From Clostridia bacterium (GTDB lineage Bacteria; Bacillota; Clostridia; Christensenellales; UMGS416): a stretch of 64,000 bases of DNA. Under the pieces are notes generated by a model, which ran no database searches, was not told the origin of the DNA, and was given only the letters and a program-made list of their open reading frames with translations. Below are positions 2,856 through 21,210 of the stretch, one piece after another; the stretch's first letter is position 1; the number at the start of each line of letters is the position of its first letter. The position numbers and the translations under genes were made by a program. The DNA lies in the NCBI GenBank assembly GCA_016938675.1, contig JAFGUF010000045.1:14450-78449 (forward strand). The letters run 5' to 3'.

Positions 2856-3128
2856 ATGTCCCAGTTACTCGAGGCCCTAATGGTGATATGCTTCGGCATT
2901 TCATGGCCGTTTTCAATTATTAAATCTATCCGATCAAAAACCGCAAAGGGCAAAAGCCTGTTTTTTATGTCATTCGTTCTTGCAGGGTATGCTTTCGGAA
3001 TAGTAAGCAAATTAGCAAGCGACAACATAACATATGTACTCTTTTTCTATATGCTGAATTTCGTGATGGTAGGTGCAGATATAGCACTATATTTTGTAAA
3101 TTCAAAAAGGGATAAATCAGAGGCTTAA
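2856..3128 (+). CDS. Small three-helix membrane protein (PQ-loop / SemiSWEET-like, tentative)
   Basis: The RBS gaggtg lies 5 nt before the ATG at 2856. The product is 90 aa with three hydrophobic helices. ISWPFSIIKSIRSKTAKGKS resembles a PQ-loop type motif. Confidence 0.45.
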   Translation: MSQLLEALMVICFGISWPFSIIKSIRSKTAKGKSLFFMSFVLAGYAFGIVSKLASDNITYVLFFYMLNFVMVGADIALYFVNSKRDKSEA

Positions 3129-4042
3129 ATTTTATTGCCTGCAGTAAATATTACGAGATATTGCCTACGGTCATCAAATGGCCAGATGCAGTACCTTTCG
3201 CTAGTAATATCTAGGCTTTGCTTTATGTTATCCAGCCCCAGCAAAGCAAGCTCGGAATAATTTTCTTTTAAGTAATCCTTAATATATTGCTTGTTTTCAA
3301 TGCTCTCTTTCATGCGCTCCGCCAAGCTAAAATCTGTTATTTCCAGAATATCTGTAAGTACAATTACTTTTCCTCCGCTTTTTACCTTTGATAAGATCAG
3401 TTTATTATATCTCTCTATTATTGCAGGCATAATATTATACATTTCATTCAATATTCCGTTTAGTGCATCCAATGGATAAATACCGTAATCATATAGTATC
3501 CTTAAAAGAGCTTCCATCTGCGTGAATGCTATCTGTGTGTAGGTCGGCAGAACGATAACTGTATCGTACGTATCTTTTTTGTACGTCCGTATTTCTATTT
3601 TTTCAAAACTGCTGATAATATTCTTAATATATTTTACTATTTCTTTTTCGTCAGCTTTTCTGCTCGCCATCTTAGAAAGATTCTCAAAAAATCTTGCCTC
3701 TTCGAGGCCGCTGTAGTCCAGCCGCTGTTTTGATAATTTAGCTTCCTTATCTTTATCTAATTGCTGTCTCGTGATGCCATCTGTGATGCTAAATAAATCA
3801 ATGTCGCTAAGTACAACGCTGTCAAATACTGACGCTAAAAAGGCTAGGTCAATATCGTTGCATTCGCCTGCGCCGAAAACAAATAAGGAATTAGTCTCTC
3901 CATTATTTATGTTATCAGAAATAAACCGTGCAACATCAGCCCGATAGGATTGCCACCCGGCATACTTGCTCTGAGGGTTTCCACTGCTATTTACATCTAT
4001 ATTGAATTTTTCAATTGAAAAGTTTTTTATCTTAAAGTCCAT
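3125..4042 (-). CDS. Hypothetical protein with class-I SAM-methyltransferase-like motifs
   Basis: The RBS gaggaa precedes the ATG at 4042 (MDFKIKNF...). LFVFGAGECNDIDL is motif-I-like, VVLSDID supplies the acidic end of beta-2, and DTVIVLPTY and GGKVIVLTD resemble later motifs. The function is not established. Confidence 0.5.
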   Translation of the reverse strand: MDFKIKNFSIEKFNIDVNSSGNPQSKYAGWQSYRADVARFISDNINNGETNSLFVFGAGECNDIDLAFLASVFDSVVLSDIDLFSITDGITRQQLDKDKEAKLSKQRLDYSGLEEARFFENLSKMASRKADEKEIVKYIKNIISSFEKIEIRTYKKDTYDTVIVLPTYTQIAFTQMEALLRILYDYGIYPLDALNGILNEMYNIMPAIIERYNKLILSKVKSGGKVIVLTDILEITDFSLAERMKESIENKQYIKDYLKENYSELALLGLDNIKQSLDITSERYCIWPFDDRRQYLVIFTAGNKI

Positions 4043-4090
4043 ATTATTCCTCACCCATGATGATTGTACCAAATACTTTATCTTAATGCA

Positions 4091-4119
4091 AAAAGAAAGC
4101 CTGCCTATATGGCAGACTT
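4091..4119 (-). terminator. Terminator closing the Mrp/Nuo-like operon
   Basis: Minus strand reads aagtctgcc-atata-ggcaggctt, a 9-bp stem with one mismatch, followed by tctttttgc. It lies 16 nt after the stop at 4135. Confidence 0.6.
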
Positions 4120-4134
4120 TCCAGCAAATTAATT

Positions 4135-5970
4135 CTAGCTTTTCTTTTTGTTTTTTCTCAAATACTCATCAATGCCTATCGCAGCATCATGCCCATTGGC
4201 TACGCCGTTTATAATATCCATTCCTTTGATGATATCTCCGCCTGCAAACAGCCACGGCACTCCTGCAACCTGTCCGTTTTTGTTCGTCTTTATCTTGCCT
4301 CGCTCTATCTGCATCTGGCTCTGCACTTCATCAGGAATGTAGGTAAAGTCCGGCATCTGTCCGATTGCAAGGTATACCTGATCAGCCTCTAAAACCTGTC
4401 TTGCATCGAAATCAAATTGAGGATTGAACCTGTGGTTTTCATCAAAGAGCTGTGTGCACTCGCAAACCTCCACGCCCTTTACATTTCCTGTTTTTTCATC
4501 CACAACGATTTTCTGCGGGCCGCAGGCGAGGTTGAATTTGATGCCTTCTTCTGTTCCTTCCTCAATTTCCTCAATATCGGCTGGAATCTGCTGCCTGTTT
4601 TCAAGAGCTGCCATCATAACGTCGGATTTGCCGTATTTCATGTTCTGCAGGCGCACAAGCGTCCTTGCAACGTCGAATGCAACGTTTCCTGAGCCGATAA
4701 CTACGACCTTTTCCTTTATTTCTGGCATTTTCGCGCTTCCTCTTTCGAAGTCTGCCGAATCTGCGAGGAACGGCATCGCCATAATTACATCCTTGTTGTC
4801 AACGCCGGGGATATTTAAAGGTCTTGTATCTGGATATCCAGTCGCAATGAACACAGCATCGTGTGTGCTCTTTAATTTATCCATCGTAATGTCTTTCCCG
4901 ACGTCTGTATTCGTGTGTATTTTCACACCGAGCTTCTCTATGAATGAAATATCCCTGTTTGTAATGTCATCCGGCAGCCTGTACTTTGGCGCACCGTATC
5001 TCATCGGGCCGCCTGCCTGAGCCTTTCTTTCGTATACATCTACTTCATAGCCCAATGTGCTGAGGTAATAGGCCGCTGATAGCCCTGCGGAGCCTGAGCC
5101 CACTATGGCCACCTTGCCGTCACCTTTTTTAGATACCTGAGAGAGAACTACCTTTTCGTACTCATCATCGGGCACATTGTCCACGATGTATCGTTTCAGC
5201 CATCTTATTGCTACAGCGTCGCCTCTTTGGGATATGGCGCACGCGCCTTCGCACTTGTGTGTACATATTCTGCCGCACACAGACGGCAGCGGATTCGTTT
5301 TGTATAGGTAGTCAACGCCTTCTGAAAGATTGTCATTCCATACTGACCTGATATATTCCGGTATGTTCATATGTGCGGGGCATGTCTTTGTGCATATTTC
5401 GCATGCAACACACCTTGAAGCCTCTGCAATGGCCTGCTCCTTGGAAAAACCTCTGACTATTTCAATAAATGAGCCTTTTCTCTCGTCCTCGCCGACGTGT
5501 TCCATATGCTTTCTTTCAAGGTCTAGCAAGTCTGATGTCTCATCTTTTACATAGCCTAATTTAATTGGTTTCCCCGTAATGCCCTTTTCAGTAGGCATGT
5601 AGTAGAAGTCCTCAGGGTCTGACGAATTAAGCAGGTATTCCTTTGTAAGGCTTAATGAGCCTGATGTACATATATCTACGCATAGTGCGCAGAAACAGCA
5701 CCTGCCGTAGTCTATTACCGGGCGCTCCGGCTTGGAGCCCTCTTCATCGGCTACATCACTGCGCTCTACCATGGTTATAGCATTGGTCGGGCACACTTCA
5801 GAGCATGTGCCGCATCCTATGCACTTTGCCCAGTCGTTTATGTGGAAGCCCCTGTAATTGTCCTGTGATTCTCTGGGATTCTTGAATATATCATCCATAG
5901 CCACAGTAACAGGCTTTTTAAATAAGTATTTCCAGCCCTTGAAAGGCGCTAAAATGCTCTTTTTATCCAT
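4135..5970 (-). CDS. Fusion protein: NuoI/MbxN-type 2x[4Fe-4S] ferredoxin module + GltD/NfnB/SudA-type FeS-FAD-NAD(P)H oxidoreductase
   Basis: The N-terminal ~115 aa contain CIGCGTCSEVCP and CCFCALCVDICT, and the N-terminus looks NuoI-like (KGWKYLFKKPVT). GltD-type Cys clusters follow (RCVACEICTKTCP and CGRICTHKCEGAC). Two dinucleotide folds are present (VAIVGSGSAGLSAAYYL and VVVIGSGNVAFDVA), along with a C-terminal AGGD motif. Confidence 0.8.
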   Translation of the reverse strand: MDKKSILAPFKGWKYLFKKPVTVAMDDIFKNPRESQDNYRGFHINDWAKCIGCGTCSEVCPTNAITMVERSDVADEEGSKPERPVIDYGRCCFCALCVDICTSGSLSLTKEYLLNSSDPEDFYYMPTEKGITGKPIKLGYVKDETSDLLDLERKHMEHVGEDERKGSFIEIVRGFSKEQAIAEASRCVACEICTKTCPAHMNIPEYIRSVWNDNLSEGVDYLYKTNPLPSVCGRICTHKCEGACAISQRGDAVAIRWLKRYIVDNVPDDEYEKVVLSQVSKKGDGKVAIVGSGSAGLSAAYYLSTLGYEVDVYERKAQAGGPMRYGAPKYRLPDDITNRDISFIEKLGVKIHTNTDVGKDITMDKLKSTHDAVFIATGYPDTRPLNIPGVDNKDVIMAMPFLADSADFERGSAKMPEIKEKVVVIGSGNVAFDVARTLVRLQNMKYGKSDVMMAALENRQQIPADIEEIEEGTEEGIKFNLACGPQKIVVDEKTGNVKGVEVCECTQLFDENHRFNPQFDFDARQVLEADQVYLAIGQMPDFTYIPDEVQSQMQIERGKIKTNKNGQVAGVPWLFAGGDIIKGMDIINGVANGHDAAIGIDEYLRKNKKKS

Positions 5971-5984
5971 ATTCTAAATCCCTC

Positions 5985-7091
5985 CTATCTGTCGATTTCC
6001 GGCGAGCAGATGCCCATCGTGTCAAACCAGAGCGGTGCGTCGTCAATTCTGTGCCCCGGCATGTATTTCTCAACGCCCAATAGCCCTTGCGGGAATGATG
6101 CTCCTCGCACCGCTACCCTGTATGGCATTGTGTTTCCGTCAGATACGGTGTAGTATCCGTATTCACCGCGGCTTGCTTCCACTGCGCTGTATACCTGTCC
6201 TGCAGGGACACGCCACCTTAGTGCGCTGCCGTCTGCTACTTTGGCTCTTACTTTGCCGCCCGGCATCATGTCAATAGCCTGCTTGATTATGTTTATGCTC
6301 TGGTACATCTCCTGATACTTAAGTGTCATTCTGGTCTGTGCGTCCGAATATGTAGCTGTCGGCACCTTGAAGTCAACTTTTTCGTATCTTGCGTACGGAG
6401 CCACTTTTCTTATGTCGTATTCCTGTCCGGTTGCTGACCTCATGCCTATTCCGGTTACGCCCAGCTCCCATACAACCTCTGCAGGTAGCAGAATGTTGTC
6501 AACCGTACGTGCGCGGACTGTTGGATTGTTCAATACCAGGTCTTCGTATTCAGGCAGCCTGCTTTCAAGGTCATTCAAAAAGTCGAGTATTTTGTTTTCA
6601 ATTCCTTTTGGCAGATCCTTGCGAACTCCGCCTGCCACTATATACATGTGGTATACTCTATGGCCTGTAATTTCTTCAAATATTGTGAGTATGCGGTCTC
6701 TGTCGGCCTGTGCCCAGTACATTGCAGTGTAGAGCCCTGTAGGGCCTCCTATTCCGCCAAATGCCATAAGGTGAGCAGAAAGCCTTGCAAGCTCTAATAT
6801 TATCATGCGAATCCAGTGGGCACGCTCCGGCACCTTTATCTTGGCCAGTGCTTCAATATTCATGGCATAGACCATTTCGTTTGTGTCCGGTTCAGGCACG
6901 CATATCCTTGGGATGAGGGCGATGTTGTTCATCCATGTGCGCCTCTCCATAGATTTTTCGAATCCCCTGTGAAGCATTCCCGGCAATAGGTAAGACCTTT
7001 TGATTATGTCACCTTCCACATACATATGGACACTGGCGTTTCCGTGCATTCCCGGGTGCTGAGGGCCTAAGAATAATTTTATCTCTTTCAT
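5985..7091 (-). CDS. NuoD / group-4 [NiFe]-hydrogenase large-subunit homolog lacking two of the four Ni-Fe cysteines (Mbx/Mbs-L-like)
   Basis: GPQHPGMHG and LHRGFEK are NuoD/HycE signatures. The N-terminal motif reads RICVPE (C64..E67) instead of RxCGxC. The C-terminal motif reads ICSPEIDR (C362..E365) instead of PCxxCxDR. Confidence 0.85.
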   Translation of the reverse strand: MKEIKLFLGPQHPGMHGNASVHMYVEGDIIKRSYLLPGMLHRGFEKSMERRTWMNNIALIPRICVPEPDTNEMVYAMNIEALAKIKVPERAHWIRMIILELARLSAHLMAFGGIGGPTGLYTAMYWAQADRDRILTIFEEITGHRVYHMYIVAGGVRKDLPKGIENKILDFLNDLESRLPEYEDLVLNNPTVRARTVDNILLPAEVVWELGVTGIGMRSATGQEYDIRKVAPYARYEKVDFKVPTATYSDAQTRMTLKYQEMYQSINIIKQAIDMMPGGKVRAKVADGSALRWRVPAGQVYSAVEASRGEYGYYTVSDGNTMPYRVAVRGASFPQGLLGVEKYMPGHRIDDAPLWFDTMGICSPEIDR

Positions 7092-7612
7092 TTCTTATCA
7101 CCTGCCTTGCTGAAGTCTGCAGCATACTCCCTAACCGGATATTTCCTGTCGGAATAGGCCTTTGAATCAAAGTCCTTGCGCAGCGGTGGCATATCGTCCC
7201 AATTTTCAAGAAAGAGCTGCTTATATGAATCCGGGTTGCCTTCAAACTCCACTCCGAAAAATTCGTGAACGTCTCTTTCGTAGTATTTCGCTCCGGGATA
7301 TATGCTGGTGACTGTTGTAAATTTCGGGTTAGACCTGTCTATTCTTGTGCGCACCTGCAGCCTTATGCCTGTCTCCCAGTTAAATACTATGTACACCAGC
7401 TGGAATTGGTTGTCCTTAATCCAGTCTACGCAGGAAAGGATAGACAGCTGCCTGAAGCCCTGCGACTTAACATATGCCAGAACAGAATGAATATCTCTCG
7501 AATTAAAATCCAATGCTGCCTGGTCATCTTTAGGGTAATCTTCGCCCACAAGCTCAAACCTTGATTTAATATCTGCAACTAAATTTTTAATATCTTTATT
7601 CATGGAACTCAT
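7088..7612 (-). CDS. NuoC (30-kDa subunit)-like
   Basis: YERDVHEFFGVEFEGNPD matches the NuoC ERE..DmfGi.F.gHP signature. The gene overlaps both neighbours. Confidence 0.85.
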   Translation of the reverse strand: MSSMNKDIKNLVADIKSRFELVGEDYPKDDQAALDFNSRDIHSVLAYVKSQGFRQLSILSCVDWIKDNQFQLVYIVFNWETGIRLQVRTRIDRSNPKFTTVTSIYPGAKYYERDVHEFFGVEFEGNPDSYKQLFLENWDDMPPLRKDFDSKAYSDRKYPVREYAADFSKAGDKK

Positions 7613-8156
7613 CCTTTATCCGCAATTCTCCAAGGGCCTGTATCTGGTTTTTTCTGTACCAGTCCTTGTTTTGCTCGTACTTTTTCCATCCGTTTGCTTC
7701 CTTGCGCTTAATCATGCCGATAAGGTCGTTGAAGCCGTTCATTACAGCCTCTGGCTTTGGCATGCAGCCTGCTATATAAACATCTATTGGAAGATACTGA
7801 TCCAGCCTGTTTATTACGGCATGAGAATCGTAGTATATTCCTCCGTTTAATGTGCATGGCCCGAAAGCAACCAGATATTTCGGAGTTGACATCTGTTCAT
7901 AGGCGTATATTATGCGCCTTAAGGTTTTAAGGCTTAGATATCCTGTAATTAGTAAAACGTCTGCCTGCCTAGGGGTGGCCATCGGGCCCATGCCCAGACG
8001 CTCCATATCATACCTAGATGTCATTGCCTGAGGCAGCTCTATTGCGCAGCAGCCTGTGCAGTACATCAGCATCCATATGGAATTTGCTCTGAAAAACCTG
8101 GAGATTCCATCCCAGCCTTTTCTTATGTTTTCTTGTTTTTCTACGGTATTATCCAT
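7596..8156 (-). CDS. NuoB (PSST) / hydrogenase small-subunit-like, [4Fe-4S] N2-type
   Basis: It contains CTGCCAIE, DVLLITG, GPCTLNGG and YIAGCMPKPEA, which together supply all four cluster cysteines. Confidence 0.9.
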   Translation of the reverse strand: MDNTVEKQENIRKGWDGISRFFRANSIWMLMYCTGCCAIELPQAMTSRYDMERLGMGPMATPRQADVLLITGYLSLKTLRRIIYAYEQMSTPKYLVAFGPCTLNGGIYYDSHAVINRLDQYLPIDVYIAGCMPKPEAVMNGFNDLIGMIKRKEANGWKKYEQNKDWYRKNQIQALGELRIKDEFHE

Positions 8157-8159
8157 GTA

Positions 8160-9065
8160 TTATACCCCCCATCCTAGAAATACTACCATCAGAGCCTGAA
8201 CTATGGCCAGTGTAATTGGCACCTTATAGTAGAATTTGATTACTTGATCAATCTTGAATCTCGCCAGAGCGTTCGATATAAGGCTGGCTAAGATATATAC
8301 TACAAAGTATTTAGCAATAAAGCCAAATAGTGTTGTCGCGCCGCCCAAAAACAGAGTTACAAATAACGTAACTTCTATAAATGTAGCGAATTCGTGCATT
8401 ATCATAAGCATTCCCAGCTGCTTGCCGCCATATTCAACCATTGGGCCTGAGGCAATCTCCGCAGGAGCTATAAATGTCTCAAACGGCTTTTTGCCTAGCA
8501 TTCCAAGCAGCGAGATATAGGCAACTACTGTACCAATAGGCATCTTTACTAAGTTCCAAGTCATGATGCCTGATGCCTGCTGTATGGCAGCCAGCTCTGA
8601 AAGAGAACTCGTATTATGGCCGAATATTATTCCTAGGATAACTATCATAAATGGCACTTCATAGCCTACCATCTGTGTCAGGGCGCGCATAACGCCGATT
8701 CCCGCAAGAGGATTTCCTGATCCTACGGAGCTCATTGCCATGCCCAGCATTCCTACTGCCAGCAGATAAACAAAGATAAAGAAGTTGTCCATTCCGGGGA
8801 ATGCCGAGTAGCCTACTACCGGCAGGAACATAACTGTTGCCATAATGCCGCCTAATGCCATCATTACGCCAAAGTCAAATACCCATCCGTGAGTTACACC
8901 TGTTTTGCTTAATGCCTTGAAGATATCTCTGAATTGCTGGTACCATTTTGGCCCAATCCTCTTTTGGAATCTTCCGACAATTTTTCTGTTTATTCCGTCA
9001 AGTGATGTCTGCCACACAAAGGCAAACAACAATATCCCGAATCCTGTTAATATCCCTGTAATCAT
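8160..9065 (-). CDS. NuoH / HyfC / MbhM-like membrane subunit
   Basis: It is polytopic. NRKIVGRFQKRIGPKWYQ matches the NuoH ER..g..Q.R.GP signature. The start at 9065 forms an ATGA overlap with the upstream stop, so the tracked ORF is 12 codons too long. Confidence 0.85.
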   Translation of the reverse strand: MITGILTGFGILLFAFVWQTSLDGINRKIVGRFQKRIGPKWYQQFRDIFKALSKTGVTHGWVFDFGVMMALGGIMATVMFLPVVGYSAFPGMDNFFIFVYLLAVGMLGMAMSSVGSGNPLAGIGVMRALTQMVGYEVPFMIVILGIIFGHNTSSLSELAAIQQASGIMTWNLVKMPIGTVVAYISLLGMLGKKPFETFIAPAEIASGPMVEYGGKQLGMLMIMHEFATFIEVTLFVTLFLGGATTLFGFIAKYFVVYILASLISNALARFKIDQVIKFYYKVPITLAIVQALMVVFLGWGV

Positions 9066-10909
9066 AAGCTGCCTCCCCACAATAGAGCTATTACCGCGCA
9101 AACCATCCAGAACACTATAATCCGCGGCTTATTGTTGAAGAATGTGTAGCTTACCAATTGTCCTGCTTCCTCAATCTTCTTTATAAGCGCTGCGTACCAC
9201 TTTTCTGTTGAAGGAGCATTCTCATACAGCCTTTCAAACGGAGCGTAGAAAGCATATGAGTAATGCAGAAGTTCCGGGGTGTATATAAACTCTGAAGCTG
9301 TGTATGTGTCCATCAAGTCTACTTTTCTTGATTTCGGATGGATTATGAAAATTATCAAAGCGATAAAGAAACCTATTCCGAAGATCAATGAAACCAATGA
9401 AGGGTTGAGTTGTCCGTTAGTTCCCGATATTACGAGCCCGTTAAGTGTAAGTCCGTCAAGCCCTGCTGTCTTTAATATATCACTGATGAATCTAAGCACT
9501 ATATTAGGGAATACTCCGAATAATAATGTCAGCAGAGAAAGGCCTATCATCGGCACCTGCATAAGGAACGGAGCTTCCTTCACGCTTTCATGCTTCGGCG
9601 AAAGCTGACCCAAAAATACTGCGCTCAAAGGCCTGAATACATAAAGGAACGAACCAATGCTTCCGAAGAATGCTGCAGCTGCAGTAAATACCATTCCCTT
9701 TCCTATCATTGACTGAAAGAGCATCCACTTGGATATAAACCCGCTCATTGGCGGAATGCCTGCCATTGATATGATTGCTATCAGGTAGACAAGGTATGTG
9801 AGGGGCATTCTGTGAATAAGTCCGCCCAGCTCGCTCATCTTGGTTGTTCCTGTTCTGTGCACCACAGCAGCTGCTGACAAAAACGCCGCTGCCGAAGCCA
9901 GAGCGTGAGCGAACATATGCATAAACGCTCCGCCTACGCTTAGTGAGTCAGCAATCGCTATTCCTATTATTATGTATCCGCCGTTTGCAACGGATGAATA
10001 GGCAATCAGTTTTTTAAAGTCTTCTGATTTTATGGCCATCAGTGTTCCTACTACTATACTTACAGCTCCCAGGAACACCAGAATATAGTTAGGTACAGGC
10101 ATTGCAAGCTCTCTGCCTAAAAACAGCGCATTAGAAGCAAACACCTTATAGGAGGGCATCACTATTACTGCAAGAAATGCCGCGAATCCGCCTGCCTTTA
10201 CCAATCCGCCTGAAAGTATCGGCGAGAATGTATCCGGAGCGTTGCCGTGCGCTTTAGGAAGCCACAGATGGAACGGAAATACGCCTATTTTCACAAGCCC
10301 CGCTATACCTATTGTTATGAACGCTACCAGCGCATATGTCGTGTTCATTGACGCCTGCTCAAGAACATACTGAATATCAAATGAACCTGTCTTTGAGTAA
10401 AGATACAGTATGCCAAAGAGCATGCTTAACGATCCGAATGCACTGAACGCGTAGTAGACAACGGATGCATTTCTGGATTTTCCGAATGGGATAATAAACA
10501 TTGAAGCCCACACTATTGTTTCCCAGAAAATGAACAGTCCAATAAAGTCCTTCGCTGTAAAAGCGCCTACCGTGCCTGCCAGTGCAACCAGGTAGAGAAA
10601 GTTATATGCCGCCGGATGAATAATCTTCTTCATCCAATACAGATTGAAAAATGACACGCTGAAAAATATAAGCAGCATCAGAACGGAGAAAAACCATCCG
10701 TAGTCTGTAAGCTTAAAGCCTAGAGCCCCAAGGCTCTGTACGCTGTTTATATCGCCTTTAAGCATAAGCATCGCAGCCAGAGCGGCGCCGGAGCCTAATA
10801 CTGTAATCAGTGCGCCCAGAATTTTATTTGCCTTAGTTAGCAAATATGCCAGCACAGCAGCCGCAAACAGGCCAACTACTATTGCCGGAACGCTTAAAAT
10901 AAAATCCAT
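9062..10909 (-). CDS. MrpA/MrpD / NuoL-type antiporter-like subunit (second copy, MbxH'-like)
   Basis: 615 aa and polytopic. It carries the proton-antiporter signature FHLWLPKAHGNAPDTFSPILSGGLVKAG. Confidence 0.85.
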   Translation of the reverse strand: MDFILSVPAIVVGLFAAAVLAYLLTKANKILGALITVLGSGAALAAMLMLKGDINSVQSLGALGFKLTDYGWFFSVLMLLIFFSVSFFNLYWMKKIIHPAAYNFLYLVALAGTVGAFTAKDFIGLFIFWETIVWASMFIIPFGKSRNASVVYYAFSAFGSLSMLFGILYLYSKTGSFDIQYVLEQASMNTTYALVAFITIGIAGLVKIGVFPFHLWLPKAHGNAPDTFSPILSGGLVKAGGFAAFLAVIVMPSYKVFASNALFLGRELAMPVPNYILVFLGAVSIVVGTLMAIKSEDFKKLIAYSSVANGGYIIIGIAIADSLSVGGAFMHMFAHALASAAAFLSAAAVVHRTGTTKMSELGGLIHRMPLTYLVYLIAIISMAGIPPMSGFISKWMLFQSMIGKGMVFTAAAAFFGSIGSFLYVFRPLSAVFLGQLSPKHESVKEAPFLMQVPMIGLSLLTLLFGVFPNIVLRFISDILKTAGLDGLTLNGLVISGTNGQLNPSLVSLIFGIGFFIALIIFIIHPKSRKVDLMDTYTASEFIYTPELLHYSYAFYAPFERLYENAPSTEKWYAALIKKIEEAGQLVSYTFFNNKPRIIVFWMVCAVIALLWGGSL

Positions 10910-12355
10910 TTAAACACCTCCTAAGCCGTCTGTCAGAAATGATAATATATCAAAGTTAAACCAATCGTTCATCTGAAGCAGAGGCAGAATACCTGCTGCT
11001 ACTATGGCAATTGCCGCAATAGTAATTATGATTGTAAGCCTTACCTTATTAGTAAGCTTATATTGCTTTGCGTCCTCTGCCTTTGCTAGTTCGCCCTCTT
11101 CACCTGTGTTCCAGAGAGTTGTGAGCATCCTTACCACATATGCTCCCTCTATTACGCTAACAATTAATATAACCATTGGAAGCCATATATTGTTTGCTTC
11201 GAAAAGCGAAACCAGAACATTAGCTTTTGCTATAAATCCGAAAAACAAAGGAAGGCCTATAAGTGACATGGCAGCCGCTGTGAAGCCGAAGCCCAGCACT
11301 TTGTTTTTAAGAAATACTCCTTTTAGATCCTCCAGCTTGTCTGTTCCGTTGTCTTCACCTATCTTAGCAGCCAATGTAAAGAGAATCATCTTTGATATTA
11401 CGTTGTTTATTAATACCAGCAGTGCAGCGGATTTTAGCCCCTGAAGGAAAAGCGCAACAACCAGCCCTGACTGAGCTATGCTTGAAAATAAAAGTATTTC
11501 CCTTAGGTTTTTCTTTGAAAATGCCGCTATCTCCGCCAATATCAATGTGCCTACTGTAACCACCGTAAAGACAATCAGCAGAGAGTCACTCATAACAAAC
11601 AGCGAATCTATAAGCCTGCCGAAAGCAAGAAGCACTGCTGCTGAAAATGCGGAAACAATAAGTGTTCCTACAAGAGAATTCGAATCCTTAAGGACTCCTC
11701 TTGCCCATCCGCTGAAAGGCAGAAGCTTCGCCTCAACTGACAGACCTGTAAAAATCAATGCCAGAGGAAGAACCAGCGCACCGGCCACAGGATAAGAAAT
11801 AATTGCCATCCTGTTCTGAATGTCCATTATGTTAAGTGAACCGAACATATTGTATATTACCGCTATGCCGAAAAGCAGAAGACCTGAGCCCAATGTTCCC
11901 AGCACAAGATAATTGAATGTATACTTGATGTTTTTGTTCATTGTAGTCAGGATATAGGCCGCTATAGCGGATATCTCCATAAACACAAACAAATTAAATA
12001 AGTCGCCTGTTAATATGACTCCGTTAAGCGCTGCCAGCGCTACTGACAAAACCACTTCATACTTTTTGATGTACTTGCATGCCATTATTGCAATGAGTGC
12101 AAATACTACATTAAGAAGAAGTATTCCCAGCAATGAATATTCATCCAGCACCAGGCTGATGCCATATGGCGGCTTGAATCCGCCTATTTCATATATAACA
12201 GGAGATACGTAGTCATAGGCTAGTATGCCGCTTGCCGCAAGGTTAAATCCTATTGCAGCACCCAGAAAATACTTGCCGAGTTTTTTAACCAGCACTGATA
12301 AAAACGCTGCGCCTAATGGTACGGCTATTAATAATATAATAAAGCTTGTATTCAT
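10910..12355 (-). CDS. MrpD / NuoN-type antiporter-like subunit (MbxH-like)
   Basis: Polytopic. The start MNTSFIILLIAVPLG at 12355 lies one nt after the MrpC stop. It is a divergent antiporter-like core (EAKLLPFSGWARGV...). Confidence 0.8.
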   Translation of the reverse strand: MNTSFIILLIAVPLGAAFLSVLVKKLGKYFLGAAIGFNLAASGILAYDYVSPVIYEIGGFKPPYGISLVLDEYSLLGILLLNVVFALIAIMACKYIKKYEVVLSVALAALNGVILTGDLFNLFVFMEISAIAAYILTTMNKNIKYTFNYLVLGTLGSGLLLFGIAVIYNMFGSLNIMDIQNRMAIISYPVAGALVLPLALIFTGLSVEAKLLPFSGWARGVLKDSNSLVGTLIVSAFSAAVLLAFGRLIDSLFVMSDSLLIVFTVVTVGTLILAEIAAFSKKNLREILLFSSIAQSGLVVALFLQGLKSAALLVLINNVISKMILFTLAAKIGEDNGTDKLEDLKGVFLKNKVLGFGFTAAAMSLIGLPLFFGFIAKANVLVSLFEANNIWLPMVILIVSVIEGAYVVRMLTTLWNTGEEGELAKAEDAKQYKLTNKVRLTIIITIAAIAIVAAGILPLLQMNDWFNFDILSFLTDGLGGV

Positions 12356-12356
12356 A

Positions 12357-12692
12357 TTATTTACCTCCCATTTCGTCCATGTCGTATGTTCCGTACTTAT
12401 CATGCATCTTCTTAGCCAATGCAAGAGCCAAAGCTGTCACGCCGACGCCGATTACAATAGATGTAAGCACGAGAGCATGGGGAAGCGGGTCAACATAGAG
12501 CATGGCTGATGATTCGTTATTTGATGTAAGAATAGGCACAAGCCCGTCCTTAACAAATCCTATTGATACAATGAAAAGATTTAATCCTATTTCGAATATG
12601 TTAAGTGCCGCAATCAGCTTAATTACATTTCTCTGGCTTAATAGGCCGTATATGCCTACCAGCATCAGAACGATAGAGAAATATTGTATCAT
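12357..12692 (-). CDS. MrpC / NuoK-like subunit
   Basis: 111 aa with three TM helices. GIYGLLSQRNVIKLIAALNIFEIGLNLF is typical of MnhC/NuoK. Confidence 0.85.
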   Translation of the reverse strand: MIQYFSIVLMLVGIYGLLSQRNVIKLIAALNIFEIGLNLFIVSIGFVKDGLVPILTSNNESSAMLYVDPLPHALVLTSIVIGVGVTALALALAKKMHDKYGTYDMDEMGGK

Positions 12693-13444
12693 CCTTCCAC
12701 CTCCTCTGTAAGAAAGCCGTCAATTACTGATGAGAGCTCACTACCTACTTTAAGTCCGATAAGCATATAGACTATTGGAATAACACCTGAGCTGATAACT
12801 TCGCCGACTGTACCTGTAGGAAGGAAGTTTTGCAGGAAGTATCCCGCAAGCACAATTCCCAAAAGTCCTACAATTACGTATAGACTTCCTGCTGTGCTCT
12901 CTACTGCCTTAGCAGCTGAAAGCTTAACCCTGAATTCATCATCAGATAAATACAAAAGCAGTATTGAAGCCGCGATTATGGCTCCGCCGGGGAAGCCACC
13001 GCCGGGAGTTATGTGCCCGTGTATAAACATATAAACGCCGAAAACTACCATTATACCGAAGATTATCCTTGCACCCTGCTTCAAAATGAAGTTAGGTGCG
13101 TCTTTCAGGTTCTTTCTTTTTCTCTTTCCATTCAGCAGCAGGCCAACACCCAGTGCGGAAACGAAAAGCACAGTAACCTCGCCTAATGTATCAAACGACC
13201 TATAGTTAACAACAACCGATGTAACCATATTTGCAGAGCCGGACTCAGCATTTTGTGTCTCTCCGAATATAATTTCTTCAGTATTGCCGTTTACGCTTTT
13301 ATCAATATACTTTTCGGATACTCTGTCATCTAGGTTTACATTTCCGTATTCATTAAACTTCAATGTTTCATCTGAAAAATAGAGTGCTGAAAAAATAAGA
13401 ATTCCTATGGCAGCAACCAATAAAATAGAAACTATCTGCTTCAT
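12689..13444 (-). CDS. MrpB (MnhB-domain) subunit with N-terminal extension
   Basis: It carries the VVNYRSFDTLGEVTVLF MnhB signature. An ATGA overlap is present at both ends. Confidence 0.8.
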   Translation of the reverse strand: MKQIVSILLVAAIGILIFSALYFSDETLKFNEYGNVNLDDRVSEKYIDKSVNGNTEEIIFGETQNAESGSANMVTSVVVNYRSFDTLGEVTVLFVSALGVGLLLNGKRKRKNLKDAPNFILKQGARIIFGIMVVFGVYMFIHGHITPGGGFPGGAIIAASILLLYLSDDEFRVKLSAAKAVESTAGSLYVIVGLLGIVLAGYFLQNFLPTGTVGEVISSGVIPIVYMLIGLKVGSELSSVIDGFLTEEVEG

Positions 13445-13695
13445 GCCTTGCCACCTGCTTTCTTACCTGCGAAGAGAGTGAACACAAAAAGTGCAGTTAC
13501 AAGCCCTGAGCCTATTACAGCCTCGGTTATCGCAACATCAGGAGCTCTCATAATTACAAAGCATACAACAGCAAGCATACTCATCATTGAAAGATAAATA
13601 ACCGTATTGAAAAGCTTCTTAGCATTTAATGCCAATACGCCAAGCACTACCATCAGGCTGCCTGCAACGATTGAAATAATATCTAGTACTGTCAT
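13441..13695 (-). CDS. DUF4040 / MrpA-C-terminal / MbhD-like small membrane subunit
   Basis: 84 aa with three TM helices. It carries the RAPDVAITEAVIGSG signature. Confidence 0.7.
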   Translation of the reverse strand: MTVLDIISIVAGSLMVVLGVLALNAKKLFNTVIYLSMMSMLAVVCFVIMRAPDVAITEAVIGSGLVTALFVFTLFAGKKAGGKA

Positions 13696-14003
13696 TTCAC
13701 TTCACTCCTTTCTTCGCCTTCTTTTTTGTATTGATATGCGCCTTTTTTGTAAGCTGCCCTTGCAAGCACTGATGAGCCTACAGGGTTTGTTATGGCGATA
13801 AAGACGATAATCAAAATCAGCTTAAGCAGCCATTGGGGGTGAACAAAGCCAACACCTAAAATCAATGAGAATGCTCCCAGTGTTGTCGCCTTGGTTCCTG
13901 CCTGTATACGGTTGAATACGTCGGGCATTCTCAGCACGCCGAATCCACCAAGCAGCAGGAAAACCCCGCCTATAACCATCAAAATATTTCCTGCTATAAT
14001 CAT
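13692..14003 (-). CDS. MrpG-like subunit
   Basis: FGVLRMPDVFNRIQAGTKATTLG matches the MnhG signature. Confidence 0.75.
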   Translation of the reverse strand: MIIAGNILMVIGGVFLLLGGFGVLRMPDVFNRIQAGTKATTLGAFSLILGVGFVHPQWLLKLILIIVFIAITNPVGSSVLARAAYKKGAYQYKKEGEERSEVK

Positions 14004-14251
14004 TGTTTCCCCTCCAAAAATCTGGCGAATACAACAGTTTCAAGGAAAGAAAGTATCGCATAAGCCAAAGCTATATCCAGATACAGGCTGCTTTCCAAAA
14101 CCAGAGCAATCATAACTATTGCCGCCGTAATAATAATGTTGAGGGTATCCAGGCCAACCACTCTGTCAAAAGATGAAGGCCCAGCAATCAGCCTGATAAG
14201 AGCAAAGAGAACGCCTAAACCGATAAGAGAAAAAACTATAATATTAATCAC
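14000..14251 (-). CDS. MrpF-like subunit
   Basis: IRLIAGPSSFDRVVGLDTLN matches the MnhF signature. Confidence 0.75.
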   Translation of the reverse strand: MINIIVFSLIGLGVLFALIRLIAGPSSFDRVVGLDTLNIIITAAIVMIALVLESSLYLDIALAYAILSFLETVVFARFLEGKQ

Positions 14252-14733
14252 TTTATAATCCCTCCTAATATCTTATCAAAGTCCTTGGATATTTCCTTCT
14301 TGTACTCTTCTTCAGTGCTTCCTTTTACGTTTACCCAGTGTACCAATACATGTCCGTCCTCAACATCCAGAGAGAGTGTTCCCGGAGTCAGAGTGATGGA
14401 ATTGGCCAGTACTAATTTTCCGAAATCATTTTTGATTTCCGTCGGCACTTTCACAATGCCCGGATTGATAGGCATTTTCGGGCTTAGTACCCGGTATGCC
14501 ATGTCCAGATTGGCAATTACAAGCTTATAGATAAATACAGGTATGTATACAAATACAAACTTTAATGCTCCTAATACTATTGAAAAGCCGAAGGAATAGT
14601 TGACATACTTGGATACAATAAAAGCAAGGATTAAAGCAACTGCACCACCAAGGATAATCTCAGTTACATTGAATCCGGCAATCAGTATCCATATTGCCCA
14701 TAGAGCTAAAAATGTCGATATGCCTTTTTTCAT
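14248..14733 (-). CDS. MrpE-like subunit
   Basis: It carries the LANSITLTPGTLSLDVE MnhE signature. The start MKKGIS at 14733 is preceded by the RBS aaggaagggga. Confidence 0.75.
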   Translation of the reverse strand: MKKGISTFLALWAIWILIAGFNVTEIILGGAVALILAFIVSKYVNYSFGFSIVLGALKFVFVYIPVFIYKLVIANLDMAYRVLSPKMPINPGIVKVPTEIKNDFGKLVLANSITLTPGTLSLDVEDGHVLVHWVNVKGSTEEEYKKEISKDFDKILGGIIK

Positions 14734-14794
14734 ATGATCCCCTTCCTTTAAAATAAAATGATGTAATAAGTTCATTATTTTCCGGCGGATAAAA

Positions 14795-15091
14795 TCAATC
14801 TACCAGAACATTAACGATTTTTATTATGCGTTCATTAACCACATAATAGTTTACTTCCAATCCGCTTCTTCTGGCGTCCACAATGCCCGCTGTTCGCAGC
14901 TTAGCAAGGTGCTGAGATATGGTAGACTGCGGAAGATCCAGACAGCTTTGGATTTTGGTCACATTGCATCCTGGTTCATTTATCAGACCGTTTACAATGC
15001 AGAGCCTGATAGGATGGGCAATAGCTTTTAGCATCTCTGCCTTTTCCGTCATCTGCTCTAGTTTTTCCTTTGCGTTAATTATAGTTATCAC
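14795..15091 (-). CDS. ArsR/SmtB-family transcriptional regulator
   Basis: The winged helix-turn-helix reads AIAHPIRLCIVNGL...QSTISQHLAKLRTAGIV. Cys residues are at 31, 42 and 50, with no canonical CVC metal site. The start is ambiguous: either the GTG at 15091, which sits inside a gaggtg string, or the ATG at 15052. Confidence 0.85.
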   Translation of the reverse strand: MITIINAKEKLEQMTEKAEMLKAIAHPIRLCIVNGLINEPGCNVTKIQSCLDLPQSTISQHLAKLRTAGIVDARRSGLEVNYYVVNERIIKIVNVLVD

Positions 15092-17907: not shown

Positions 17908-18741
17908 TCAGTCGAATTTCAGGCTTATATCCAGCGCCTTAACAGAATGGGTAAGGGCTCCAATTGATATGATGTCGACTCCTGTCTTTGCTACTTCCTC
18001 AAGGTCCTTCTCGCCCATATTGCCGGAGGCTTCGATAATTGCCCTTCCTGCTGCTATTTTTACTGCTTCAGTCATTGTATTGTTATCCATATTATCTAGC
18101 ATTATTATGTCTGCACCGGCTTTGAGCGCTTCATTCAGCTGCTGTATCGTTTCAACTTCCACTTCTATTTTAAGGGTATGCGGTGCGTTCCTTCTGGCTG
18201 CCTCTACTGCCTTTGTTATGCCGCCTGCCGCCTTTATGTGATTATCCTTTATCAGCACGCCGTCTGCAAGATTAAACCTGTGGTTGGCGCCGCCGCCTGC
18301 CTTTACAGCATATTTTTCGAATACTCTTAATCCGGGAGTAGTTTTTCTTGTATCAACAATCTTCGCCTTGTATCCTGATACTTTCTGAACTGCTTCATTG
18401 GTGTTTGTTGCTATGCCGGACATCCTCTGCATCAGGTTAAGCGCCAGTCTCTCGCCCGTCAGCACGGAGGCTGCATCCCCTGAAATAGTGCCGATTATAT
18501 CACCTTTATTAACATGCTCGCCATCCTTTAAGCTGCAATTAAACTCTATACTTTTATCAGCATAATCAAAAACTGCCCTTGCTACCTCTATTCCGCATAT
18601 GATTCCCGATTCCTTGGCTATAAACCTGCCTGATATCTTAGTCCCCTCCGGTACTGTGCTCAATGTTGTGATATCACCGGTTCCTATATCCTCTTGTAAG
18701 GACCTCTTAATAAAATCCCTCATTATATCTTTATCAATCAT
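17908..18741 (-). CDS. nadC: Nicotinate-nucleotide (quinolinate) phosphoribosyltransferase
   Basis: It carries the IVDTRKTTPGLR and GGGANHRFNLADGVLIKDNH signatures. Confidence 0.9.
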   Translation of the reverse strand: MIDKDIMRDFIKRSLQEDIGTGDITTLSTVPEGTKISGRFIAKESGIICGIEVARAVFDYADKSIEFNCSLKDGEHVNKGDIIGTISGDAASVLTGERLALNLMQRMSGIATNTNEAVQKVSGYKAKIVDTRKTTPGLRVFEKYAVKAGGGANHRFNLADGVLIKDNHIKAAGGITKAVEAARRNAPHTLKIEVEVETIQQLNEALKAGADIIMLDNMDNNTMTEAVKIAAGRAIIEASGNMGEKDLEEVAKTGVDIISIGALTHSVKALDISLKFD

Positions 18742-20281: not shown

Positions 20282-20289
20282 ATTCTCCC

Positions 20290-21210
20290 TCAGCTTAGCT
20301 CCAGCATCCTGTCAAGGCTTGCCTGCGCTTTGCTTCTTATCTCTTCATCCAGTTCAATTACGTTTATTGGCTTGCTCGCTTCTAGGCTTTCAAATGCCAT
20401 GAGCAAATCATTTAGTGTGGTTTTCTTCATATCGTCGCATACAAAATTAGAAGATACCATAACGAATTCCTTATCGGGGTTTTGCTCCTTCAACTTGTAA
20501 AGGATGCCGTCTTCTGTGCCCACAATTATTGTTTTTGCTTCCACTTCGCCAGCCTGATTCAGTATCTGGGTAGTGCTTCCAACAAAGTCTGCCAGTTCTA
20601 TTACGTCATCCGGACACTCAGGGTGGACTAAAAATGGAGCTCCCGGGTATTTCTCCTTGGCTTCCAGCACTTGGCCTGCAACTATAATGTCATGCACCGG
20701 ACAATATCCGTCAACTGTAATTACTTCCTTATTTTCTGCATTTTCTGCAACATATCTGCCGAGATTTTTATCCGGCAGGAAAACAATGCGCTTTTGCTCA
20801 AGTGAATTGACTATCTTTACGGAGTTTGATGAAGTGCAGCATACATCGCATTCTGCTTTTACCTCAGCGGATGTATTAACATAGCATACAAATGCAGCAT
20901 CAGGATATTGCTTTTTCAGTTTCTTTACGTCCTCTGCAGTTATCATATCCGCCATAGGGCAGCCTGCATCCATATTAGGCAGTATCACTGTCTTTTCAGG
21001 GCTTAGTATTTTTGCGCTCTCCGCCATGAATTTAACTCCGCAGAAGACTATCACATCAGCATCGGTATCTGCTGACTTTTTGCTCAGTCCGTAGGAATCG
21101 CCCACCATGTCGGCAACGGCCTGAATCTCCGGTATCTGATAATAATGCGCAAGTATCACTGCATTATGCTTCTTTTTAAGTTCCTGTATCCTATCTACGA
21201 TTTCTTTCAT
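20290..21210 (-). CDS. nadA: Quinolinate synthase
   Basis: It has the ILAHYYQ start block, FMAESAKIL, and conserved Cys residues in the CPMA, CYVN and HPECP regions. Confidence 0.9.
   Translation of the reverse strand: MKEIVDRIQELKKKHNAVILAHYYQIPEIQAVADMVGDSYGLSKKSADTDADVIVFCGVKFMAESAKILSPEKTVILPNMDAGCPMADMITAEDVKKLKKQYPDAAFVCYVNTSAEVKAECDVCCTSSNSVKIVNSLEQKRIVFLPDKNLGRYVAENAENKEVITVDGYCPVHDIIVAGQVLEAKEKYPGAPFLVHPECPDDVIELADFVGSTTQILNQAGEVEAKTIIVGTEDGILYKLKEQNPDKEFVMVSSNFVCDDMKKTTLNDLLMAFESLEASKPINVIELDEEIRSKAQASLDRMLELS

Follow-up and report, generated by a model that had tools for sequence, protein, structure and literature searches.

The window, a 64-kb stretch of DNA from a mesophile-type Clostridia MAG, encodes the NuoD-like (L) subunit of a bacterial relative of MBS, the archaeal sulfur-reducing respiratory complex. 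The L protein does not represent a new kind, and its two Cys/Glu motifs are the family's already described remnant of a lost NiFe site. We regard it as probable that the surrounding operon specifies a bacterial MBS-like complex of the 'energy-converting hydrogenase-related' (Ehr) class, which is not a hydrogenase, carries vestigial NiFe motifs and functions as an NAD(P)H-driven, ion-translocating reductase. Our analysis establishes the identity of every subunit, the homology of the motif positions, the conservation of the operon and the architecture of a fusion protein at its end.

Organization of the operon

The L gene is the twelfth gene of a 13-gene mbsABCDEGHH'MJKLN-type operon with an ArsR regulator upstream. 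The Pfam domains follow one another in the order MnhE, MrpF, MrpG, MbhD, MbhE/MnhB, NuoK-like, two Proton_antipo_M, NuoH, NuoB, NuoC, NuoD and NuoI-like, which we take to be the order of the P. furiosus mbsABCDEGHH'MJKLN genes. The P. furiosus MBS structure (6U8Y) is the best solved relative for every subunit tested (L, J, the N domain, H' and M). The features are as follows, in the direction of transcription.

14795–15091, minus strand: ArsR/SmtB-family regulator, first gene of the cluster (Pfam HTH_5; synteny)
14248–14775, minus strand: MbsA/MrpE-like (Pfam MNHE, 8e-39)
14000–14251, minus strand: MbsB/MrpF-like (Pfam MrpF_PhaF, 2.3e-18)
13692–14003, minus strand: MbsC/MrpG-like (Pfam PhaG_MnhG_YufB, 1.2e-25)
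13441–13695, minus strand: MbsD, MbhD-like (Pfam MbhD, 2.8e-17)
12689–13444, minus strand: MbsE with MbhE and MnhB domains (Pfam MnhB, 2.6e-22; MbhE, 6.7e-9)
12357–12692, minus strand: MbsG/MrpC/NuoK-like subunit (Pfam Oxidored_q2, 1.7e-20)
10910–12424, minus strand: MbsH/MrpD-like antiporter-type subunit (Pfam Proton_antipo_M, 4e-32; conserved in related loci)
9062–10909, minus strand: MbsH'/MrpA-like antiporter-type subunit (Pfam Proton_antipo_M; PDB 6U8Y_X, E 1.3e-72, residues 58–607)
8160–9101, minus strand: MbsM/NuoH-like membrane anchor (Pfam NADHdh, 3e-55; PDB 6U8Y_M, E 2.5e-48)
7596–8156, minus strand: MbsJ/NuoB-like subunit with the proximal [4Fe-4S] cluster (PDB 6U8Y_J, E 3e-62)
7088–7612, minus strand: MbsK/NuoC-like subunit (Pfam Complex1_30kDa, 4e-30)
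5985–7091, minus strand: MbsL/MbxL-type (NuoD-like) L subunit, 368 aa (translation, Pfam, PDB match, alignment)
6891–6902, minus strand: L1-equivalent motif C64-V-P-E67 (codons 6900–6902 to 6891–6893; context IPRIC64VPE67PDT)
5988–6008, minus strand: L2-equivalent motif C362-S-P-E365-I-D-R at the L-subunit C-terminus (context MGIC362SPE365IDR, then stop)
4135–5970, minus strand: MbsN–NfnB/GltD fusion, 611 aa (Pfam Fer4, Fer4_20, Pyr_redox_2)
4094–4122, minus strand: terminator-like hairpin, 12-bp stem then T run, 13 nt past the stop of the fusion gene

The true start of the MbsM-like reading frame is probably Met13, near 9065, and that of the MbsH/MrpD-like frame is probably the ATG near 12355. 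The MbsH'/MrpA-like subunit bears a C-terminal extension, and the terminator-like hairpin likely marks the end of the operon. The whole arrangement, fusion gene included, recurs in 25 Clostridia MAG loci, in Marinitoga and in Haliovirga. The regulator scores 76 bits with the NCBIfam HTH_metalloreg model and 57 bits with the BigR model, under the BigR cutoff; its residues C31, C42 and C50 are conserved across the Clostridia loci and are lacking in the ArsR-like regulator of Marinitoga. The regulator of archaeal MBS is SurR.

The L subunit keeps one Cys of each NiFe motif

The L subunit matches Pfam Complex1_49kDa (1.4e-69), and its best PDB match is P. furiosus MbsL (6U8Y_L, E 4e-84), followed by NDUFS2 (~1e-66), MbhL (1e-38) and HycE (1.5e-29). 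A Foldseek search with its AF2 model (pLDDT 91) returned a TMq of about 0.93 to both MbsL and complex I 49-kDa subunits and hence does not discriminate between them.

Translation of the gene confirms the two motifs described in the initial annotation, R-I-C64-V-P-E67 and I-C362-S-P-E365-I-D-R, and the span of 5997–6902 given there is exact: the C64 codon opens at 6902, and the E365 codon (5997–5999) closes at 5997. The protein has no Cys besides C64 and C362, and it ends at the L2-equivalent motif with no extension for endopeptidase processing. In a MAFFT alignment to HycE of E. coli, a genuine group-4 [NiFe] large subunit, R-I-C-V-P-E falls on R-V-C-G-I-C and G-I-C-S-P-E-I-D-R on D-P-C-Y-S-C-T-D-R, residue for residue, and C64, E67, C362 and E365 are equivalent to Cys1, Cys2, Cys3 and Cys4, respectively. 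The positions are therefore homologous to L1 and L2, as had been supposed, and the CxxE motifs represent the vestigial NiFe site of the family, with the first Cys of each kept and the second replaced by a carboxylate.

P. furiosus MbsL has an identical N-terminal motif (RICVPEPD) and the C-terminal motif C385-P-P-D-I-D-R. C64 and C362 align to its C85 and C385, and the two proteins share these surviving Cys, a carboxylate at +3 and the ...DR end, differing in the C-terminal carboxylate, which is Glu here and Asp in MbsL. According to the initial annotation, Mbx/Mbs-type large subunits are reported to keep only a subset of the four Cys. This is correct, since MbsL keeps C85 and C385 (Yu et al. 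2020, PMC7684303) and Mbx-like NuoD homologs retain the first and third NiFe ligands (Degli Esposti 2015, PMC4758237). Across a 50%-clustered library, the four positions read CCCC in hydrogenases, CDCD, CECD or CECE in MBS-like proteins and D/N-S/A-V/I-E in complex I; an exhaustive search of the 50% representatives returned no full-length representative from the query's own clade, the best full-length match being 45% identical.

The Cys/Glu observation is thus real but largely known. Among 120 orthologs of the L subunit (67–100% identity), C64 and C362 are each present in 119 and E67 and E365 in all 120, while R[IV]CVxEPD occurs in 119 of the 120 and CxPE[IV]DR in 118 of the 119 full-length sequences. 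About 33% of all columns in the same set are as conserved as these positions, so the figure alone is weak, and we rejected it as proof of function. Both Cys are still present at 40% identity, in archaeal MbsL. We take the strong conservation of the Cys/Glu pairs to suggest a structural or second-shell role.

The initial annotation had gone further and proposed that the pairs form a different metal site or one based on thiols, for example for an acceptor of the sulfane-sulfur type, which is not supported. Such a site, either a mononuclear metal held by two Cys and two carboxylates or a Cys-persulfide relay, would carry out the acceptor chemistry in place of the Fe-S cluster, and we consider it unlikely. 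Its appeal lies in the near invariance of the four residues, in the recurrence of C[DE]...C[DE] among deeper relatives, in the published view that conservation of the two MbsL Cys is surprising (PMC8165549) and in the prospect that the MbsJ-type cluster is fully Cys-ligated in part of the family (see below), in which case catalysis would need another site. However, the C85A/C385A variant of P. furiosus MbsL has dimethyltrisulfide activity comparable to wild type, and MBS catalysis has been assigned to the non-Cys-ligated Fe of the MbsJ proximal [4Fe-4S] cluster (PMC7684303). The many equally conserved columns also weigh against it, and so does Glu365, which is not special: almost every non-hydrogenase relative, complex I among them (...GEVDR), has an acidic residue at this position, mostly Glu, and it is therefore not a new acquisition. 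If P. furiosus MbsL is a guide, catalysis probably does not take place at the Cys/Glu pairs adjoining the proximal cluster. The P. furiosus mutants were assayed as a soluble subcomplex with a model substrate, which may leave room for the Cys to act in coupling or in the complete enzyme. In itself the motif contributes little, because it has already been published that Mbx/MBS large subunits lost two of their four NiFe Cys, and mutagenesis has found the remaining ones dispensable in the archaeal enzyme.

A Cys doublet in the J subunit

The J subunit aligns to 6U8Y_J without gaps over 159 residues, with a loop as long as the shortened one of MbsJ, whose proximal cluster has only three Cys ligands (C-x-x-C-G), and carries the motif C33-T-G-C36-C37 together with C101 and C131 (numbering of the J alignment). 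CTGCC is found in 92 of 114 scorable J homologs and CTGCG in the other 22; the latter occurs in P. furiosus, Marinitoga and Haliovirga, whereas the Clostridia/Izemoplasma branch has CTGCC. The extra Cys of the C36-C37 doublet corresponds in the alignment to the second of the N2 ligands in NdhK, and CTGCC in place of CTGCG may thus supply a fourth Cys ligand that closes the 'open iron' required by the published mechanism of MBS. If a complex-I-like four-Cys proximal cluster is real, that mechanism cannot apply, and the doublet asks whether the 'site-differentiated cluster' mechanism of sulfane reduction holds family-wide.

A bolder proposal, to which we attach a low probability, is that the Clostridia/Izemoplasmatales MBS scaffold has become a distinct NAD(P)H-driven ion pump, with NfnB-type input, a four-Cys proximal cluster and a His in the beta1-beta2 loop of L, and with the C64/E67/C362/E365 quartet engaged in acceptor chemistry. 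The invariant quartet, which adjoins the cluster, would then act by way of, for example, a persulfide relay or a metal that it binds. The loop in question, GPQHPGMHGN, contains the complex-I-type His16; MbsL has this loop deleted or altered. In Thermotogota and Haliovirga, whose orthologs are 70% identical, the J subunit keeps CTGCG and has no doublet.

Electron input and likely function

The fusion gene lies directly after the L gene and is kept in 27 of 27 related loci. The N-terminal part of its product is an MbsN/NuoI-like 2x[4Fe-4S] domain (residues ~3–121; PDB 6U8Y_N, E 2e-28 over residues 3–121), which is followed by a linker and an NfnB/GltD-like domain of ~450 aa (residues ~162–608; NfnI large subunit 5JCA_L, E 3e-73 over residues 162–608) predicted to hold two [4Fe-4S] clusters, FAD and an NAD(P)H site. 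Residues 1–608 of the 611 align with the NCBIfam model NF010590/PRK13984 at 911.5 bits, just below the cutoff of 946. MBS, in contrast, has a stand-alone, ferredoxin-accepting MbsN, and the fusion of the MbsN-like domain to an NAD(P)H/FAD module implies that ferredoxin is probably not the donor here. The Mbx-like operons of Thermotogota (T. maritima mbx, Marinitoga mbxL, Mesotoga Theba_1796-1808) likewise end in a gltD-like gene (PRK13984); their L subunits are 67–72% identical to ours, with the same CxxE/CxxE pattern, and the operons match the one described here, Fer4-GltD fusion included. In Thermotoga the gltD-like flavoprotein has been described as replacing NuoI (PMC4758237), and S0 induces mbxA of T. 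maritima 4.4-fold (PMC9431562).

Judged from these sequence features, the complex likely functions as an NAD(P)H-driven, ion-translocating reductase, for which we infer the direction of electron flow, the acceptor, the coupling to ions and, for the Cys of the bacterial enzyme, a role outside catalysis. Electrons from NAD(P)H would pass through FAD to the two [4Fe-4S] clusters of the NfnB/GltD-like domain, then to the two of the fused MbsN-like domain and on to the proximal [4Fe-4S] cluster of the MbsJ-like subunit, which would hand them to the acceptor in a chamber that L, J and M form together. Homology makes sulfane sulfur (polysulfide or S0) the probable acceptor. Through its MrpA/MrpD-like subunits and the small Mrp-like ones, the complex would couple turnover to the translocation of H+/Na+. 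To our knowledge, no bacterial, NAD(P)H-linked MBS-like complex, Thermotogota Mbx included, has been purified or characterised biochemically.

Between NAD(P)H (about -320 mV) and polysulfide (about -260 mV), only an estimated 10 kJ or so is available per 2 e-. This is far below the ~41 kJ quoted for ferredoxin-driven MBS (PMC8165549), yet both antiporter-like subunits are kept, an observation that runs against the reading as a reductase of this kind. Three differences separate the complex from archaeal MBS, namely the NfnB/GltD fusion (already noted in Thermotoga), the complex-I-type His of L and the CTGCC motif of J; the last two, with His16 absent from P. furiosus MbsL, also speak against that reading.

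In the older 'Mbx' model, the enzyme would be a ferredoxin:NAD(P)+ oxidoreductase with an Rnf-like function and the GltD/NfnB-like domain would be its NAD(P)+-reducing output. Bacterial Mbx was interpreted in this way by Degli Esposti 2015 (PMC4758237) and in a Mesotoga genomics paper, and the NfnB-type FAD/[4Fe-4S] module is reversible in Nfn (5JCA homology). We nonetheless find this direction improbable, given that this model, once applied to P. furiosus Mbx as well, was replaced after polysulfide reduction by MBS had been shown (PMC7684303, PMC9431562) and that ferredoxin-distal flavin transfer would bypass the proximal cluster and the chamber, presumably the place of coupling in all relatives.

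Comparison with complex I

The Q-module of complex I (NuoD/Nqo4, NuoB/Nqo6) has the same fold as the L subunit (TM 0.93). Also common to both are the C-terminal ...E-[IV]-D-R, the His of the beta1-beta2 loop and, within the Clostridia/Izemoplasma clade, the Cys doublet of the NuoB homolog. Complex I relies on NuoEFG for NADH input and on a NuoA/J/K/L/M/N membrane arm, whereas the operon described here has Mrp-type small subunits and an NfnB-like module. A complex-I analogue of the Bacillota branch, in which the NfnB-like module would take the place of NuoEFG and electrons would go from NAD(P)H to quinone or another hydrophobic acceptor, seems to us very unlikely. The alignment of C36-C37 with the N2 ligands of NdhK agrees with it, as do the equal Foldseek matches to complex I 49-kDa subunits and MbsL, and the L subunit scores above the cutoff of the NCBIfam NuoD equivalog. 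The orthologous cluster of X. coldseepsis, a cultured Izemoplasma, is annotated as complex I, and the genome is said to encode cytochrome bd. The quinone-head ligands of T. thermophilus Nqo4 give a divided picture: His38 is matched by H16, but Tyr87 is replaced by Val65, which is invariant in the 120 L orthologs. Further against a quinone enzyme, the Mrp/MBS-type membrane arm lacks the NuoA/J/L set, similarity is clearly highest to MBS for the tested subunits, and the doublet is missing from the 70%-identical Thermotogota and Haliovirga orthologs; no NuoE, NuoF or NuoG was found in the 64-kb window. We rejected a complex I identity on the Tyr-to-Val65 replacement, the Mrp-type arm and this absence of NuoE/F/G from the window.

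The practical value of assigning the complex to MBS instead is one of annotation. The NCBI model names the L protein NuoD and the Izemoplasma cluster has been read as complex I, so that reconstructions of Christensenellaceae, Vallitaleaceae, Izemoplasmatales and others may wrongly assume NADH:quinone respiration.

Comparison with [NiFe] hydrogenases

The L-subunit pocket cannot be a NiFe site, because the second Cys of both L1 and L2 is replaced; we take these second-position Cys to be the Ni-Fe bridging ligands, as in D. gigas hydrogenase. Scored against the group-4 motifs (RxCGxC for L1, DPCxxCxxR for L2), the subunit has only two of the four Cys, and the hydrogenase proton-relay Glu (HycE ...DEPGHF; MbhL E21) aligns to Gly17 and is absent. 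Pfam scans of all major ORFs in the 64-kb window detected no hyp or hycI homologs, and tblastn with E. coli HypA-F, HycI and HycH gave no match at E<=1e-3 in the window or in the +/-10 kb flanks of the 27 related loci. The initial annotation had likewise noted that the window holds no hyp or endopeptidase genes and had concluded that the pocket is not a NiFe site. Both statements stand, the second being supported as well by MbsL, which keeps the same two Cys, stays active as C85A/C385A and has its catalysis at the MbsJ cluster. A working [NiFe] hydrogenase with unusual ligands is effectively refuted: for all its homology to group-4 large subunits (HycE, E 1.5e-29; MbhL, 1e-38), the L subunit is missing two of four metal ligands and the proton-relay Glu, maturation genes were found neither in the window nor around the 27 related loci, and the closest characterised relative has no hydrogenase site.

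The group-4 enzymes MBH (6CFW) and E. coli Hyd-3 (HycE, 7Z0S) share with the complex a homologous peripheral arm, Mrp-related membrane modules and alignable motif positions, but in contrast to the L subunit they possess the full set of four Cys and the proton-relay Glu and depend on Hyp proteins for maturation. MBH contains one antiporter-like subunit only and the complex described here two. The Ehr class combines group-4-like subunits that lack the NiFe ligands with Mrp-like subunits, as is the case here (PMC6349859); it is a heterogeneous umbrella group, within which the operon belongs to the specific Mbx/MBS branch.

The L subunit retains one cysteine of each NiFe-site pair

The following genes are considered here:
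5985-7091 (-): L subunit, NuoD-like and of MbsL/MbxL type, 368 aa
7596-8156 (-): J subunit, MbsJ/NuoB-like, carrying the proximal [4Fe-4S] cluster
4135-5970 (-): terminal fusion protein, 611 aa

The L gene is a member of the bacterial Mbx/MBS-like complexes with a GltD-type subunit. Its product belongs to the Pfam family Complex1_49kDa (E 1.4e-69) and, in translation, carries IPRIC64VPE67PDT and a C-terminal end reading MGIC362SPE365IDR; the interval singled out in the initial annotation is delimited exactly by the C64 (6900-6902) and E365 (5997-5999) codons. Using E. coli HycE, a bona fide group-4 [NiFe] large subunit, as the reference, R-I-C-V-P-E aligns on R-V-C-G-I-C, and G-I-C-S-P-E-I-D-R aligns on D-P-C-Y-S-C-T-D-R. 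The alignment of both motifs bears out the proposed homology of the CxxE pairs to the hydrogenase CxxC positions and, together with the translation, the reading that each motif keeps its first Cys and has Glu as its second. C64 and C362 are the sole Cys of the protein, and Gly17 is found at the position of the hydrogenase proton-relay Glu (DEPGHF in HycE). By reference to D. gigas hydrogenase, we take the lost positions to be the two Ni-Fe bridging Cys and the retained ones to be terminal Ni ligands.

[quoted passage not shown] RICVPEPD is identical in MbsL, which ends in CPPDIDR, and C64 and C362 correspond to MbsL C85 and C385, counted along the alignment. Pfam scans of all major window ORFs detected no Hyp or HycI family, and neither the window nor the 10-kb flanks of the 27 related loci gave a tblastn match at E<=1e-3 to E. 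coli HypA-F, HycI or HycH, in agreement with the earlier statement that the window holds no hyp or maturation endopeptidase genes.

The Cys/Glu pairs are a NiFe-site remnant, probably non-catalytic

A 'MAG: Clostridia bacterium' protein matches the L subunit at 100% identity, and relatives bearing the NuoD annotation number in the hundreds across Clostridia, Izemoplasmatales/Tenericutes, Fusibacter, Haliovirga and Thermotogota; one from Marinitoga is named mbxL. R[IV]CVxEPD is found in 119 of the 120 best L homologs, and CxPE[IV]DR in 118 of the 119 full-length ones. The C/E pairs, whose conservation across orthologs was the check proposed in the initial annotation, hold after alignment (C64 and C362, 119/120 each; E67 and E365, 120/120 each). 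Such conservation would be consistent with a functional site, a less likely reading of these pairs, but 33% of all alignment columns are conserved to the same degree. In a library clustered at 50%, the four positions grade from CCCC (hydrogenases) through CDCD, CECD and CECE (MBS-like) to D/N-S/A-V/I-E (complex-I-like), and complex I shares the acidic residue of the fourth position (...GEVDR).

In MBS, two of the four NiFe Cys of MbhL are missing and C85 and C385 remain near the proximal cluster (Yu et al. 2020, PMC7684303). The C85A/C385A enzyme is close to wild type in dimethyltrisulfide activity, although this archaeal mutant was assayed as a soluble subcomplex on a model substrate, a caveat to the mechanism proposed below; catalysis was ascribed to the MbsJ proximal [4Fe-4S] cluster, which has three Cys ligands only (PMC7684303). 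A review describes the two Cys as a vestige, 'surprisingly' conserved and not catalytic (PMC8165549). In the NuoD homologs of Thermotoga-type mbx-like operons, it is likewise the first and third of the NiFe ligands that persist (PMC4758237), and these reports substantiate the earlier statement that Mbx/Mbs large subunits keep only a subset of the Cys. The Cys/Glu pairs are a conserved remnant of the NiFe site and probably non-catalytic: the earlier conclusion against a NiFe site in this pocket stands, whereas nothing supports the new catalytic site suggested with it.

Operon organization and proposed electron path

The L gene lies within a minus-strand cluster (about 15194 to 4094), with a promoter-like site 5' of the ArsR gene and a terminator-like hairpin (12-bp stem) 3' of the last gene. 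The cluster encodes, in order, an ArsR-family regulator, MnhE-, MrpF- and MrpG-like proteins, MbhD, MbhE/MnhB, a NuoK-like protein, two Proton_antipo_M proteins, NuoH-, NuoB-, NuoC- and NuoD-like proteins, and the terminal protein. This Pfam order corresponds to the P. furiosus gene order mbsABCDEGHH'MJKLN, and MBS chains are the best solved matches of the J (E 3e-62), H' (1.3e-72) and M (2.5e-48) homologs. The same operon is present, wherever the contig reaches, in Marinitoga, Haliovirga and 25 related genome loci (Christensenellaceae, Ca. Limiplasma, Vallitaleaceae and other Clostridia MAGs, with one record labelled Prolixibacteraceae); a Fer4-GltD fusion lies 3' of the L gene in 27/27 loci and an ArsR gene is found in most.

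Residues 3-121 of the terminal protein match MbsN (6U8Y_N, E 2e-28) and residues 162-608 match the NfnI large subunit (5JCA_L, E 3e-73) and GltD-type proteins. Its Pfam domains are Fer4, Fer4_20 and Pyr_redox_2, and NCBIfam PRK13984 ('putative oxidoreductase') aligns with its full length at 911 bits, slightly below the 946 cutoff. The complex therefore has an NAD(P)H/FAD module connected to the far end of the chain of MBS clusters. Compared with archaeal MBS, the NfnB/GltD fusion implies NAD(P)H, and not ferredoxin, as the redox partner. A less likely rival assignment for the complex is a Fd:NAD(P)+ oxidoreductase.

An MBS/Mbx-type ion-translocating oxidoreductase is the best-supported assignment for the complex. 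Electrons would enter from NAD(P)H at the FAD and travel along five [4Fe-4S] clusters before reaching an acceptor in the L/J/M chamber, most likely sulfane sulfur, judging by homology and by the ecology of the carriers. Oxidation of NAD(P)H by polysulfide would release little energy, about 10 kJ per 2 e- by our own estimate, which is a caveat to this mechanism, as is the resemblance of the J-subunit Cys doublet and L-subunit His16 to complex I.

Thermotoga-type mbx-like operons have a gltD-related flavoprotein in place of NuoI (PMC4758237), and S0 induces T. maritima mbxA 4.4-fold (PMC9431562). The motif, operon type and fusion are thus all already described at the family level; none of the bacterial members has been characterised biochemically.

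Likeness to complex I

The beta1-beta2 loop of the L subunit (GPQHPGMHGN) contains His16 (codon 7044-7046 (-)), which is invariant in the 120 orthologs and aligns with the loop His of complex I (GPQHPAAHG), whereas in P. furiosus MbsL this loop is shorter and lacks an equivalent. This likeness would suit a quinone reductase, another less likely assignment, but the position of the complex I quinone-binding Tyr (Tyr87) is Val65 here. An AlphaFold2 model computed from a 38-sequence alignment (pLDDT 91.1, pTM 0.91) superposes alike on complex I 49-kDa subunits and MbsL (TMq about 0.93), with the best mutual TM for MbsL (0.92); the predicted structure confirms the fold and does not discriminate between subfamilies. 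The L subunit scores 423 against a cutoff of 360 for the NCBIfam 'NADH-quinone oxidoreductase subunit D' equivalog, hence its public annotation as NuoD, and the orthologous cluster of X. coldseepsis was read as complex I (PMC8397711). The NuoD/complex I naming looks like a systematic mis-annotation.

The J subunit carries Y-C33-T-G-C36-C37-A-I-E (8046-8060 (-)), with C-T-G-C-C in place of the C-T-G-C-G seen in P. furiosus MbsJ and in Marinitoga and Haliovirga. In alignment, C36-C37 coincides with the adjacent pair of N2 ligands in NdhK, the extra Cys being the second of the N2 doublet. CTGCC is present in 24/24 Clostridia loci reaching the J gene and, among the 120 best J homologs, in 92/114 scorable sequences (CTGCG in 22/114); the named CTGCC proteins are Izemoplasma, Tenericutes, Acholeplasmataceae and Firmicutes records. 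Judged from the motif, CTGCC may give the proximal cluster a fourth Cys ligand again; ligation of the cluster by C37 would, in this branch, close the 'open iron' invoked for sulfane reduction. According to Degli Esposti (2015, PMC4758237), the doublet first appeared in Fpo, and none is reported there for mbx-like complexes. The locus is of modest interest, mainly for a bacterial enzyme that has not been characterised and is routinely mis-annotated as complex I, and for this clade-specific doublet.

Neighbouring genes and related loci

Further genes in the window are:
3125-4072 (-): 315-aa ORF directly past the operon terminator
14795-15091 (-): ArsR/SmtB-family regulator at the operon head
17908-21210 (-): nadC, nadB and nadA (NAD de novo synthesis), a few kb from the operon
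21255-23104: lipoate-protein ligase and radical-SAM gene, after the nad block
23362-29567 (-): 1011-aa HEAT and glycosyltransferase-2 protein; 1057-aa ORF without family match
29568-31586 (-): adjoining 672-aa protein with ODP-type metallo-beta-lactamase-fold (PF19583, ODP family), GGDEF and receiver domains
43018-44361 (+): 447-aa CoA-disulfide reductase/NADH oxidase-family flavoprotein

The 315-aa ORF has no Pfam or NCBIfam match; homologs (24-49% identity) adjoin the operon, upstream or downstream, in most Christensenellaceae/Vallitaleaceae loci, and none was found in the Marinitoga or Haliovirga loci. The regulator gene stands first in the operon of nearly all Clostridia loci; there its C31, C42 and C50 are kept, whereas the Marinitoga counterpart lacks them. 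The regulator matches the BigR model weakly and below threshold (57 bits, cutoff 155) and could be a redox or sulfane-sulfur sensor. In one Christensenellaceae MAG (L024:10001-11600), the L gene and the next fusion gene contain several mid-gene frameshifts and stops between intact flanking parts, reflecting either an assembly indel error or a decaying copy.

The flavoprotein has an active-site-like PCGIPY and finds its best PDB matches in NoxA-3, CoADR and CoA-persulfide reductase. A protein 54% identical to it is encoded in Haliovirga abyssi by the gene directly upstream of the mbx-like operon (L027:743-2101), and the flavoprotein may serve as a partner of the NSR type, an NAD(P)H sulfur reductase. 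The genes at 23362-29567 and 29568-31586 may form a c-di-GMP-controlled polysaccharide module.
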